64,000 bases of DNA, taken from the NCBI RefSeq assembly GCF_002087085.1, contig NZ_MWQY01000002.1, forward strand, positions 62,001 through 126,000. Direction: 5' to 3'. Positions 39,001 through 42,000 of the stretch are shown here, in pieces. The position numbers were made by a program. Every line of letters begins with the position of its first letter. Position 1 is the first letter of the stretch.

Positions 39001-42000
39001 CTATGGCGCCGGAGGCAGACTCGCTGCGGAGTTCCTGGGAAAAACAATACGGGGAAATGGCAGGATACTCATTATCCATAACCCGGTGGATTCCGAGCAC
39101 ATACTTGCGGGAGCTCATATAAACGAAGAACGGCTGCTTCATTTTGTTTCATATCTTTCGGTGCATTTCCCCCGTGTCGAGCACCAGGTTATTTCCTTTC
39201 GGTCAAGACAGAGCAGAGAAGACATGATGCAGGAGCTTGACGAGATACTGAGAGACGAAGCGGACAGTTTTTCCGGAATATACAGCATCGCGGACATACA
39301 GGAATTACTGGGGGAGAAAATTCTTCACCAGGGTCTGGAAAACCGGTATAGTATTCTGGTCCACGGCGTCAACCCGGATACCGGCATGTACCTTCTGTCC
39401 CATGCGTTTACCGCTGCTATCCATCAAAATCCCTTCAGACAGGGGTATTACGCTGTAAGGCTCCTCGAGCATTATCTGGAGAACGGAAGCATGCCGGCGA
39501 CAATTCCCTCAATTCCTCAGGGTATTTTGCTGGGGAACTCAATAAATGACCAGGATGATTTTTGGAGGATAGAATAGTGTCCCTTCGCCTCAACTCACTT
39601 CTCAACGGAATGTATGTCTCTCTGGCAAGGATCTGCCCCAGCCCCCTGAGTCCCGAGGGTATGCACGGCGCGCTGACCGCCGTTGCCCTCTCCCCGAACC
39701 CGAGCCTTCCCAACGCCTGGATCCCCGTGTTGTACAATATGAAGGGAGATCAGCCCGAATTTCTTGACCGCGATCAGGCGAAAGAGTTTCTTGATACAGC
39801 CGTAACAGCCTATAACAGCGTGGTTGCCTCGCTTACCGGAAACGAAGAGTACTCCCTTACCTTCAGTGTCGGGGAGAAACCGGATGCACAGGAGGCAACA
39901 AAGCTGCAGGCCTGGTGCGAAGGATTTATCAAGGGACTGCGCCAGACCGGCGTCGATCCCGCGGATTATGACCTCGATTTTATATCCCTCATGAGCCCCA
40001 TAGCCTTCTGCGCGAGGCCTGACTCCTTTACGTCCGTCGATGACAAGGAGATTATGGGTGAACAGATCCATCGTATTGCCGGAGAAATTCCCGCCAACCT
40101 TGTTGCCTTGAGGAACTACTTTTATCTGGACATCCAGAAGAAGCGTTTGGCCGGGGGCACGAAGAATCCGGGGCGTAACGACCCCTGCCCCTGCGGAAGC
40201 GGAAAAAAATACAAACATTGCTGCGGCAGAACTAATTCTTGACAATCCCTCCGGCTGGTGTATGATTCAGTATCATGATCGAATCCATGCCTGTTGTTGA
40301 CGCCCATCATCACTTCTGGGACATTCCCGGGAATTACCATCCCTGGCTCTGCGATGACCCGATGATACCCTTCCGCTATGGAGATTATACCGCCCTGCGC
40401 AAACCCTTTATGCCGAGGGATTACGAATCGGCAAGCAGGAAATTCACGGTGATAAAGAGTGTCACCGTGGAAGCGGAATGGAATCCCCAGGATCCTCTGG
40501 GGGAAACCCGCTGGATACACCGGGTTGCCGATGAGTTTGGACGTCCCCATGCACATGTGGCCCAGGCATGGCTCGACAGCAGGAATGCAGAGGAGATCCT
40601 GGCCGGGCAGGCGGAATTTCCCCTTGTCCGGGGCATCCGCCACAAACCGGCTGGCTCTGAAAGACCTCTTCCGGGAACCACAGCAGAACCCGGCGGCCTG
40701 AGCGATCCCGCATTTCAGCGGGGATACTCACTTCTTGCCCGGTACGGACTCAGTTTCGACCTGCAAACCCCATGGTGGCATCTGCCGGAGGCTCTGAAAC
40801 TTGGTGAGAAATTTCCGGAAACCCTGATTATCCTGAACCACACGGGCCTTCCCAGCGACCGAAGCACCGAAGGTCTTTCCGCCTGGCGCTCTGCGATGAA
40901 GACCTTCGCACAATTCCCCAATGCAATGGTCAAAATCTCCGGTCTCGGTCTTCCGGGAAAACCCTGGCTCCTGGAGGATAACCGGGGCATTATTCTGGAT
41001 ACCCTTGAAATTTTCGGTCTCGAACGCTGCATGTTCGCCAGCAACTTTCCTGTGGACTCCCTGGTTGGGGATTTCGATACAATCTTCTCCGGCTTCCTCG
41101 AAGCGGTCCGCGATCTGGATCCTGGGGAAAAACGCAAACTGTTCGTGGAGAATGCCCTTCGCATATACCGGATAGATGCATAGTCCTCCGGGCGGGGGGA
41201 CGGAGACCGCGGCTGTTCGGTAAAATCCATGGTTCCGGCTTGACCTGCAGGCAAATACGGTGTAAACATAAGGCATGTCTGGAATAACCTGCAGCTGTAC
41301 ACTATTCAGTACCGCAGCCGCCGCGGCCGCCCGGAGGGGAGCCGCGGTTTAAGGATATTCCACAATACTGGAATCGTTCACCGCGGAGACCCGGGTCAGG
41401 GTTACCGCGGTTTTTTTATACCCGCCCTGACAGATCGGCCCCGGAGAACCAGAAGGAGAATCAGATGAGACGACCGATTGTGTGGGACGGAGCAGGAGAA
41501 CTGCGCTACGAAATCAGGGAGATAGTCCGGGTTGCACACCGCATTGCCGCAGCAGGACTTCCTGTAGTTTATGAGAACATCGGAGACCCGGTACAAAAGG
41601 GAGAAAAGGTCCCTTCCTGGATAAAGGACATAGTGGTCTCCCTGACTCAGCAGGATACATCCTACTGTTACACCGACAGCCAGGGAGATTACGCCACCAG
41701 AGAGTTCCTTGCCGCAACGGTTTCTGCCCGCGGCGGCGCCCGGATCGGCCCGGAGGACATATACTTCTTCAACGGCCTCGGCGACGCGGTGGCCCGAATA
41801 TTCGGGTACCTTAAACGGGAAGCCCGGGTCATAGGCCCGTCGCCGGCCTACTCAACCCTCTCCTCCGCCGAAGCTTCCCATTCGGGGTATGAGCACCTTA
41901 CCTATCGGCTGGACCCCGACAATAACTGGATGCCCGATATCTCCGACATCGAAAACAAGGTCCGCTACAACCCCTCTATTGCCGGCATTCTGCTTATAAA

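Follow-up and report, generated by a model that had tools for sequence, protein, structure and literature searches.

The window, by which we mean the whole 64-kb stretch of DNA analyzed here, carries a gene for a pyridoxal phosphate (PLP) aminotransferase. It is preceded by a promoter, a short upstream open reading frame (uORF) containing a run of six alanine codons, and an intrinsic terminator. An earlier note had described this arrangement together with four CCGCGG palindromes, and all of these features were found where it placed them. They are listed below for the genome of the window (G000), with positions counted from the first nucleotide of the window.

41240..41245, + strand: -35 box TTGACC (sequence; spacing to the leader ATG constant among tabulated spirochaete leaders)
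41263..41268, + strand: weak -10 box TAAACA (17-nt spacer; 8 of 12 to consensus jointly with the -35 box)
41275..41352, + strand: leader ORF of 25 codons plus TAA, MSGITCSCTLFSTAAAAAARRGAAV (ATG at 41275, TAA at 41350-41352)
41314..41331, + strand: six-Ala-codon run GCA GCC GCC GCG GCC GCC (putative regulatory codons, core of region 1)
41320..41348, + strand: 1:2 hairpin, Ala run with region 2 (fold, -22.4 kcal/mol)
41336..41348, + strand: region 2, GGGGAGCCGCGGT (in folds can pair with the Ala run, region 3 or region 4)
41353..41379, + strand: small hairpin nested within the 2:3 antiterminator (folds)
41380..41392, + strand: region 3, the terminator 5' arm, ACCGCGGAGACCC (folds)
41399..41411, + strand: region 4, the terminator 3' arm, GGGTTACCGCGGT (folds and covariation)
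41380-41411, + strand: terminator hairpin (-22.5 kcal/mol)
41411..41417, + strand: T7 tract of the intrinsic terminator (sequence)
41453..41458, + strand: Shine-Dalgarno sequence AAGGAG of the aminotransferase gene (sequence)
41465..42763, + strand: PLP aminotransferase gene, NF005334/PRK06855, 432 aa, AlaA homolog (profile and PDB relatives)

The CCGCGG palindromes lie at 41321, 41342, 41381 and 41405, which places four of them in 90 nt compared to 42 across the window. From the promoter to the terminator, the leader spans about 140 nt. Its ATG lies 6 nt past the -10 box and lacks a Shine-Dalgarno sequence, from which a leaderless or nearly leaderless mRNA is predicted. A simple promoter and terminator scan of the locus called neither feature, because the promoter, for which we obtained the same 8 of 12 as the earlier note, falls under the scan threshold of 9 and because the internal loop and long stem of the terminator lie outside the scan rules. 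As previously noted, the element does not correspond to a catalogued RNA: no Rfam leader family, T-box included, gave a gathering-score match in this region of the window (best E-value 2.5), and an Rfam search of 12 related loci returned 0 matches.

Metatranscriptome contigs touch the locus in two data sets. Those of X19 cover 41150-41294 and 41269-41409, at a depth of about 2, with a 10-letter loose end. Those of X20 cover only 42192-42384. Both sets are low-depth contigs only, from one study per place and possibly DNA carry-over, and they do not bear on transcript start, end or level.

The downstream gene encodes a homolog of alanine aminotransferases

The downstream protein scores 651.6 bits against NF005334 (cutoff 443), with residues 1-430 aligned to positions 1-431 of the 434-position profile. 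Among PDB structures it is closest to E. coli AlaA (4cvq, 1.5e-41) and Pyrococcus 1xi9, and its nearest solved relatives are alanine aminotransferases. Both the profile score and these relatives agree with what had been claimed for the gene. NCBI names NF005334 only "pyridoxal phosphate-dependent aminotransferase". Against the alanine aminotransferase equivalog NF006230 the protein scores 166.5 bits and misses the cutoff of 534, which makes it a homolog and not a member. From its sequence relationships, we infer that the enzyme makes alanine.

The leader is conserved in class Spirochaetia

In 13 of 14 loci of relatives, a TTGAC box is followed by an ATG uORF with 5-7 consecutive Ala codons and a T-run, the same count that the earlier note gave for an Ala-run uORF with a terminator. 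We found the aminotransferase ortholog in 47 of the 251 genomes of the class. When the 5' flank was on the same contig (46 loci), a uORF with at least four consecutive Ala codons and a terminator preceded the gene in 37. In G019, where the two parts of the locus lie on separate contigs, the element is present as well, giving a class total of 38/47 orthologs with an Ala-run uORF and terminator; by our detection rule, 9/47 are without it. In G003, which is of the same genus and lacks the element, the upstream gene abuts the aminotransferase gene.

The distance from TTGAC[ACG] to the leader ATG is the same in every tabulated spirochaete leader, and the ATG lies 4-11 nt past the -10 box, the range reported before. 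A covariance model built for this analysis gave a single match in G000 at 67.5 bits (next match, 20.1 bits), reproducing the one hit claimed for this genome. When 151 class genomes were searched with the model, there were 20 hits of at least 47 bits, 19 of them directly before the ortholog and 1 at a contig end. The element is present in a single copy per genome.

Weaker hits of the covariance model were also considered as candidate Ala leaders. None of the 15 examined was one; they were tRNA plus terminator, 3' ends of coding sequences, or other leader types.

Leaders with other codon runs occur in the same class. A Phe-run uORF with a terminator, also near-leaderless, precedes pheS in G000. 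Class relatives have a His-run uORF before hisG and an Ile/Val/Leu-rich uORF before ilvB.

The codon run is specific for alanine

Our first detection rule missed four leaders: L127 and L157, in which an upstream in-frame start gave an ORF of more than 70 codons, and L133 and L154, in which the T tract reads TTTTCT. The revised rule was rerun with controls and is the source of the 156-locus counts. Ala runs occur in 65 of these pooled loci, while runs of the other 19 residues occur in 0. Scanning the reverse complement as a control produced 1 hit in total. With an earlier, simpler rule the counts were 24/94 forward versus 0/94 on the reverse complement.

The run of 4-8 consecutive Ala codons is the sole peptide feature conserved across families, and the remaining residues vary. 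All four codons are used in the runs (GCC 50, GCA 35, GCG 29, GCT 11). Within its short ATG ORF, the run is always read in the GCN frame, while its distance from the ATG is variable.

These counts bear on the alternative that a chance ORF in a GC-rich spacer happens to lie beside an ordinary terminator or insulator. In favor of such an accident, short ORFs are common and the genome is 53% G+C. However, the runs are on the sense strand and are of alanine only, and a genome-wide scan of G000 found one Ala-run uORF with a terminator in 4.2 Mb. These data make a chance origin extremely improbable.

Desulfuromonadales carry an analogous leader on the same enzyme family

Outside the class, the earlier note had put the number of orthologous loci with the element at 0 of 24. 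This claim does not stand, since in Desulfuromonadales the ortholog is preceded by an analogous Ala-rich uORF and a terminator at 23 of 30 loci when a run of at least three Ala codons is required, and at 17/30 when at least four are required. Conservation in class Spirochaetia is upheld by the 38 orthologs described above, but the element is not confined to the class.

The Desulfuromonadales loci form a separate clade in the protein tree, and their uORFs are led by a Shine-Dalgarno sequence. When these uORFs were pooled, their Ala content was 25.4%, versus 9.0% when the same DNA was read in its other two frames. The leader RNA sequences are unrelated to those of spirochaetes yet also encode Ala-rich peptides.

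This second lineage is relevant to what the enzyme does. An attenuator that senses alanine could be correctly identified while the main role of the enzyme is something other than alanine synthesis, for example with another substrate pair; the generic name of NF005334 and the score below the alanine aminotransferase equivalog cutoff would be consistent with this. Nevertheless, among solved structures the protein is closest to E. coli AlaA and Pyrococcus 1xi9, and two lineages have put an Ala-codon leader on the same enzyme family. In known attenuators, moreover, the regulatory codons correspond to the product of the regulated pathway. Considering these points, we regard a different main role as unlikely and favor alanine synthesis.

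Alternative RNA pairings depend on region 2

We examined the pairings of regions 1-4 by folding. In G000, the 3:4 terminator (-22.5 kcal/mol, z -4.4) and the 2:3 pairing (-25.5 kcal/mol, z -4.0) were each equaled by 0 of 200 shuffles, and the 1:2 hairpin had a modest edge over shuffles (z -1.7; 10/200 equally good). According to the earlier note, the terminator persists in minimum-free-energy (MFE) folds after masking of the run. We obtained a different result: when everything up to 41333 was left out of the G000 RNA, region 2 paired with region 4 in the MFE fold, and the outer terminator stem was lost because region 2 takes the terminator 3' arm.

When a ribosome was modelled on the third Ala codon, the terminator 5' arm paired with the upstream region 2 in 24/24 leaders, with energy z-scores of -1.4 to -6.5. 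When the ribosome was modelled at the stop codon, the arm was free (0-4 nt paired) in 19/24. The number of arm bases paired upstream was often matched by shuffles (41/200 in G000, for example), so only the energies discriminate. The leader stop codon sits in or just after region 2, a placement that would let a terminating ribosome cover region 2 and that fits the prediction for an attenuator.

Across 14 short leaders, region 2 contributes 8-14 bases to the duplex with the arm, and 6-11 of these also pair with the Ala run in the absence of a ribosome; in G000 this is 10/10. Five long leaders have extra hairpins and no direct 1:2 pairing, and these require a six-region relay, which is clearly backed by MFE folds in two of them (L007 and L014).

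RNAalifold on a MAFFT alignment of 23 leaders recovered the terminator alone and neither 1:2 nor 2:3, owing to misalignment of region 2 between subfamilies. Pairing was tested instead with per-sequence folds and by comparing cognate with non-cognate duplexes. The region-2:arm duplex averaged -18.2 kcal/mol for cognate versus -15.2 kcal/mol for non-cognate partners, and 0 of 10,000 permutations reached the cognate mean, although this figure and the shuffle counts overstate significance because related genomes are not independent samples. For the terminator, both-sided changes were seen in 8 of 12 pairs across the 23 leaders, and 90.6% of cells in its columns were paired, compared to 36-50% when the partner columns were slid.

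Could the RNA switch without a ribosome, in response to a metabolite, protein or tRNA ligand, with the GCN repeats and palindromes serving as structure and the ORF incidental? In favor of this, a stable hairpin uses the Ala run itself as one of its strands, and the palindromes can pair in many ways with no ribosome present. Against this, the run stays in the GCN frame of an ATG ORF despite its variable distance from the ATG, and third positions vary among all four Ala codons. The ATG keeps its place 4-11 nt past a conserved promoter and the stop codon its place in or just after region 2. Furthermore, the unrelated Desulfuromonadales RNAs encode Ala-rich peptides with a clear bias over the other frames, and no Rfam family was matched, T-box included. 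We consider a ribosome-independent switch very unlikely.

Discussion

The reading of this element as an alanine leader-peptide attenuator, made in the earlier note, is supported, as every prediction testable at the sequence level was borne out. Sequence analysis of its anatomy, conservation, alanine specificity, terminator covariation and alternative pairings indicates that it is probably a ribosome-mediated transcription attenuator that responds to charged tRNA-Ala and governs expression of an AlaA-like aminotransferase.

We propose the following mechanism. Transcription would begin at or just before the leader AUG, producing an mRNA that is leaderless or nearly so, and a ribosome would translate the 25-codon leader. 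With plentiful Ala-tRNA, the ribosome would reach the TAA at 41350-41352 and cover region 2; with no ribosome, region 2 would pair with the Ala run. In either case the 3:4 terminator would form, and transcription would end at the U7 tract. When Ala-tRNA is scarce, the ribosome would stall within 41314-41331, holding region 1 and leaving region 2 free. Free region 2 may then sequester the terminator 5' arm (2:3, -25.5 kcal/mol) or the 3' arm (2:4). With the terminator blocked, RNA polymerase would read into the aminotransferase gene and more alanine would be made from pyruvate.

The design resembles that of the classical leader-peptide attenuators (trpL, hisL, pheL, leuL, thrL, ilvL/ivbL and the E. 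coli pheST leader pheM). Both place a run of cognate codons in a short leader ORF, have regions 1-4 with mutually exclusive 1:2, 2:3 and 3:4 pairings, and carry an intrinsic terminator before the structural gene that is about as stable as the antiterminator or more so. Unlike the classical systems, the element is proposed to sense alanine, matches no Rfam leader family, and has a leader that starts 4-11 nt past the -10 box with no Shine-Dalgarno sequence. In addition, its regulatory codons are themselves palindromic pairing units (GCC GCG G contains CCGCGG). T-boxes are a different solution: they sense uncharged tRNA through a terminator/antiterminator switch before aminoacyl-tRNA synthetase and amino-acid genes. 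These riboswitches have a conserved fold and do not need translation, whereas the element described here has no T-box match in Rfam.

The closest precedent is the trans-acting "Ala leader" of mycobacterial whiB7. The whiB7 uORF is Ala-enriched and lies before a rho-independent terminator, stalling leads to antitermination, and WhiB7 activates the alanine aminotransferase gene aspC in trans (PMC10274678). The two systems share an Ala-enriched uORF, a terminator and a raised alanine aminotransferase as output, but the whiB7 attenuator controls a transcription factor while ours lies directly in cis on the aminotransferase. In addition, the long and diverse whiB7 uORF responds to many amino acids as well as to antibiotics, whereas ours has a tight Ala run (PMC10274678). 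The gene downstream here is the aminotransferase and not a WhiB7 gene, so the working principle alone is common to both.

This precedent raises the possibility of a general translation-stress attenuator of the whiB7/antibiotic-resistance type, in which any slowing of translation would lead to read-through and the Ala run would be at most a bias. By the same logic, region 2 would be freed by a stall at any point upstream of it, and the Ala-enriched whiB7 uORF answers many amino-acid starvations as well as ribosome-targeting drugs (PMC10274678). Three observations argue otherwise: consecutive Ala codons are the only peptide feature conserved across families, the regulated gene encodes an AlaA-like aminotransferase and not a stress regulator, and Phe, His and Ile/Val/Leu leaders precede cognate genes in the same lineage. 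A general stress response thus seems distinctly unlikely, and an alanine-sensing attenuator is the reading we retain.

Mycobacterial polycysteine short ORFs are leaderless, and stalling on them controls genes of cognate amino-acid metabolism (bioRxiv 10.1101/834739). As proposed for our element, a leaderless sensory ORF with a single-residue run precedes genes for the metabolism of that residue; however, they use Cys and have no intrinsic terminator, whereas ours combines Ala with a terminator (bioRxiv 10.1101/834739). The cysS uORFC-8-2 and aroF uORFC-13-1 motifs are uORF candidates from comparative genomics (PMC8632094). Like ours, they are sequence-only predictions with a promoter, a cognate-codon uORF and a terminator stem; they differ in residue (Cys and Phe) and in taxa (PMC8632094). 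The main text of that paper never uses the word "alanine" (0 occurrences), and the passages searched contain no alanine motif (PMC8632094).

No cis-acting Ala attenuator was found in Rfam or in the searchable literature. A literature search on leader-peptide attenuation in spirochaetes also found no such element, and little was found in print on the subject. To judge from these searches, alanine had not been described under classic leader-peptide control, while the design itself is known. If our reading is true, alanine joins the short list of amino acids under leader-peptide attenuation.

We lean, by a little, toward the view that classical attenuation by alanine arose at least twice on the PRK06855 family, that in spirochaetes a leaderless mRNA encodes the leader peptide and its CCGCGG Ala codons double as pairing units, with an SD-led, Ala-rich counterpart in Desulfuromonadales, and that the leader marks this family as the main alanine-forming enzyme of Spirochaetia and Desulfuromonadales. 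Two distant lineages with different architectures would offer a clean case for studying the origins of attenuators. As a compact leaderless attenuator, the spirochaete version may also be useful as an alanine-responsive genetic part. Alongside the Phe, His and Ile/Val/Leu leaders, the Ala leader suggests that spirochaetes make broad use of ribosome-mediated attenuation. On regulatory grounds, the leader speaks for annotating PRK06855 members as alanine-forming transaminases and, if the proposal is true, would be a natural functional label for an uncharacterised aminotransferase family in both Spirochaetia and Desulfuromonadales.

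An alanine-run leader ORF precedes the aminotransferase gene

The gene downstream of the leader encodes a PLP aminotransferase whose closest relatives of solved structure are E. coli AlaA (4cvq, 1.5e-41) and 1xi9. Its score against the alanine aminotransferase equivalog NF006230 is below the cutoff (166.5 versus 534 bits). An earlier note had described a promoter, a short ORF with an alanine run and a terminator ahead of this gene, and all of these features are present where it placed them. In window coordinates, they and the genes around them are:

39562-40242, SEC-C-motif gene, upstream
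40275-41183, amidohydrolase-like gene; weak L-fucono-1,5-lactonase match, 83.7 bits, below cutoff
41240-41245, + strand, -35 box TTGACC
41263-41268, + strand, -10 box TAAACA, 17-nt spacer from the -35 box
41275-41352, + strand, leader ORF of 25 codons, MSGITCSCTLFSTAAAAAARRGAAV, ATG six nt past the -10 box
41314-41331, + strand, six Ala codons, GCA GCC GCC GCG GCC GCC
41380-41411, + strand, terminator hairpin, -22.5 kcal/mol, z -4.4 by folding
41411-41417, + strand, T7 tract of the terminator
41453-41458, + strand, AAGGAG before the aminotransferase gene
41465-42763, + strand, PLP aminotransferase, 432 aa; NF005334, 651.6 bits versus a cutoff of 443

The promoter is weak, with 8 of 12 consensus matches, and TTGACC-17-TAAACA was not called by a simple promoter scan. 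CCGCGG occurs at 41321, 41342, 41381 and 41405, giving four copies in 90 nt compared with 42 across the 64-kb window. A fifth copy (41207-41212) falls outside the predicted transcript, 33 nt before the -35 box. No Rfam family matched the leader.

In this genome (G000) and in G004, the amidohydrolase-like gene sits between the SEC-C-motif gene and the leader promoter. The end of the SEC-C-motif gene directly precedes the promoter in three other genomes (G002, G001 and G005). In G003, of the same genus, the SEC-C-motif gene abuts the aminotransferase gene and the leader is absent.

The leader is conserved in Spirochaetia and its runs are of alanine only

Orthologs of the aminotransferase occur in 15 of 41 related genomes. 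Fourteen of these loci keep an intact 5' flank, and at 13 of them, in agreement with the earlier count of 13 of 14, a TTGAC box and a T-run accompany an ATG uORF with 5-7 Ala in succession; G003 is the sole exception. A wider sample of the class, in which 47 of 251 genomes encode the ortholog, added 32 new upstream regions. Our detection rule, set before the loci were counted, called for at least four consecutive Ala with an in-frame ATG no more than 40 codons upstream and a stop no more than 30 codons downstream, plus a hairpin with a T-rich tail within 160 nt. It found the element in 37 of 46 class loci and in 1 of 46 reverse-complement controls. In G019 the ortholog is divided between two contigs; the element is present there too, bringing the class total to 38 of 47. 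Variant leaders also precede the ortholog: in G235 the uORF, MNTYKALQLNNSAKASVINSLW, lacks an Ala run but a terminator is present; G157 has a leader with AAAGA; and G309 (AAAGA) and G322 (AAAAV) each have a hairpin after the leader without a T tract.

We pooled 156 loci (46 from the class, 80 from a species-wide collection and 30 from Desulfuromonadales). An Ala-run uORF with a terminator was found at 65 of them, and the same rule found runs of the other 19 residues at none; these are not counts of independent genomes, because some genomes are represented twice (e.g. L002/L016, L057/L145 and L082/L102). The whole G000 assembly (4.2 Mb, 53% G+C) was also scanned for short ATG ORFs that contain at least four identical residues in a row and stand before a strong terminator. 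Only one of 12 matches had an Ala run, the leader at 41275-41352.

The single match in G000 claimed earlier was borne out by our own covariance model of 23 short leaders, which gave one match at 67.5 bits (E 2.7e-12) and a runner-up at 20.1 bits. Across 151 class genomes the model made 20 matches of at least 47 bits, seven of them at loci outside the model. Eighteen lie directly upstream of ortholog coordinates, the G019 match is followed by the ortholog's N-terminus, and the G244 match is at a contig end (C130). None of the 15 weaker matches examined was an Ala leader; they included two of a tRNA plus terminator, several coding-region 3' ends and three leaders of other kinds, in G234, G005 and G001.

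The leader ORF bears signs of translation

Outside the Ala run, leader peptides are wholly unlike between families, and the length ahead of the run varies. Despite this divergence, the run is always in the GCN frame of the ATG ORF, with GCC used 50 times, GCA 35, GCG 29 and GCT 11. In every tabulated spirochaete leader the best -35/-10 pair begins TTGAC[ACG], the ATG lies 4-11 nt past the -10 box (most commonly 6), and there is no Shine-Dalgarno sequence between them. This promoter-ATG spacing, from which we infer the transcription start, predicts that the leader mRNA is leaderless or nearly so.

Folding predicts a ribosome-controlled switch

The free G000 RNA folds into a hairpin of -22.4 kcal/mol between the Ala run (region 1) and region 2 (41336-41348), a small one in the middle, and the terminator. 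To model stalling, the ribosome's A site was placed on the third Ala codon and the RNA was ended at the terminator loop. Here region 2 binds 10 of 13 bases of the terminator 5' arm (z -3.3); the isolated region 2:5'-arm segment folds at -25.5 kcal/mol (z -4.0). The earlier note had cautioned that minimum-free-energy folds keep the terminator when the run is masked. Leaving the Ala run out of the complete RNA gives a minimum-free-energy fold in which region 2 is paired to the 3' arm instead (-31.8 kcal/mol), and the outer terminator stem is lost in either region-2 pairing, at odds with that caveat. A modelled ribosome that has reached the stop codon covers region 2 and leaves 0 of 13 arm bases sequestered.

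Among 24 leaders, the modelled stall sequestered the arm in all 24 (z -1.4 to -6.5). Shuffled sequences often match the number of paired arm bases, and therefore only the energies carry weight. With the ribosome modelled at the stop codon, 19 of 24 leaders had a free arm. The five exceptions, all long and carrying additional hairpins, would need a six-region relay, which folding supports in L007 and L014 and leaves ambiguous in L008, L043 and L057.

In 14 short leaders, 6-11 of the 8-14 region-2 bases that bind the arm also bind the Ala run. Region 2:arm duplexes averaged -18.2 kcal/mol for cognate and -15.2 kcal/mol for non-cognate pairs, and 0 of 10,000 permutations reached the cognate mean, a figure inflated by kinship. 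Region 2 and the terminator 5' arm co-vary. In the terminator helix, 8 of 12 pairs have changes on both sides, and 90.6% of cells are paired, compared with 36-50% when partner columns were slid.

A differently built alanine-rich leader occurs in Desulfuromonadales

Outside the class, the earlier note had found the element at none of 24 orthologous loci. This absence does not extend to the best 80 relatives in the species collection, where the rule also detected the element at four loci whose titles name Desulfuromonadales, Desulfuromonas or Geopsychrobacteraceae. The ortholog is encoded by 94 of 101 Desulfuromonadales genomes. A terminator is present at 29 of the 30 best-scoring loci, and the uORF before it contains at least three consecutive Ala in 23 and at least four in 17; at most of the others the uORF is rich in Ala but has no run, e.g. 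MTYHWDPLPVPAEAARAMGTAAKNRREARCLAV. Taking the longest ATG ORF ahead of each terminator, whatever its content, gave 25.4% Ala, compared with 9.0% in the other two frames of the same DNA. Unlike the spirochaete leaders, these carry a Shine-Dalgarno sequence in a 5' UTR, and both promoter and terminator differ. Their uORFs (L096-L125 and L082-L094) share a recurrent A-A-R-A motif (GCA GCA CGA GCG), and their terminators a common GGCCATGG core. A contig titled Pedobacter sp. (L077) and a Desulfuromonadales-order genome (G125, L096) encode an identical protein; mis-binning or mislabelling of a MAG contig is the probable cause.

The leader-bearing Spirochaetia and Desulfuromonadales groups form separate clades in a tree of 124 orthologs built with FastTree. 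The leader is present in 20 of 26 Spirochaetia rows and 0 of 10 in the adjoining Leptospirales, and in 28 of 37 Desulfuromonadales-order rows and, among their neighbours, 0 of 5 in Desulfobulbia and 0 of 6 in Nitrospirota. These distributions suggest either two origins of the Ala leader or one old origin with many losses, gain and loss being inseparable on this tree.

Leader-peptide attenuation in the lineage

Other leaders with runs or enrichment of particular codons occur, the first three of them before cognate genes:

G000 contig C10, 7264-7341, - strand (outside the window; L199), Phe uORF MTGMQGIFFSFFFFFFSTQEGPGLP and terminator before pheS (TIGR00468, 294 bits)
G234 contig C41, about 26654-26745 (L185), uORF with four consecutive His and terminator before hisG (TIGR00070, 158.7 bits)
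G005 contig C1, 215531-215627 (L192), Ile/Val/Leu-rich uORF MTFVIISLISVLVIIIGASAPQGEIA and terminator before ilvB, acetolactate synthase large subunit (TIGR00118, 553 bits)
G001 contig C1, 121853-121949 (L191), the same Ile/Val/Leu-rich uORF and terminator

The G000 pheS leader is a pheST Phe leader of known kind and is also near-leaderless, with a TTGACA-16-TATAAT promoter and its ATG 9 nt past the -10 box. The lineage therefore makes working use of attenuation by near-leaderless leader peptides, with cognate codons ahead of cognate genes.

Neither the literature searched nor Rfam yielded a cis-acting alanine leader. The whiB7 uORF of mycobacteria is the nearest precedent: it is Ala-enriched, with stalling coupled to antitermination; it raises the alanine aminotransferase aspC via WhiB7, and the authors term it an 'Ala leader' (PMC10274678). 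Mycobacterial sensory ORFs with poly-Cys runs are leaderless but act on translation (10.1101/834739).

As far as sequence analysis reaches, the data support the attenuator interpretation proposed earlier, and the leader is likely to be a genuine alanine-responsive, ribosome-mediated attenuator. Added interest comes from its predicted leaderless form and from its recurrence, with a different build, in another phylum.
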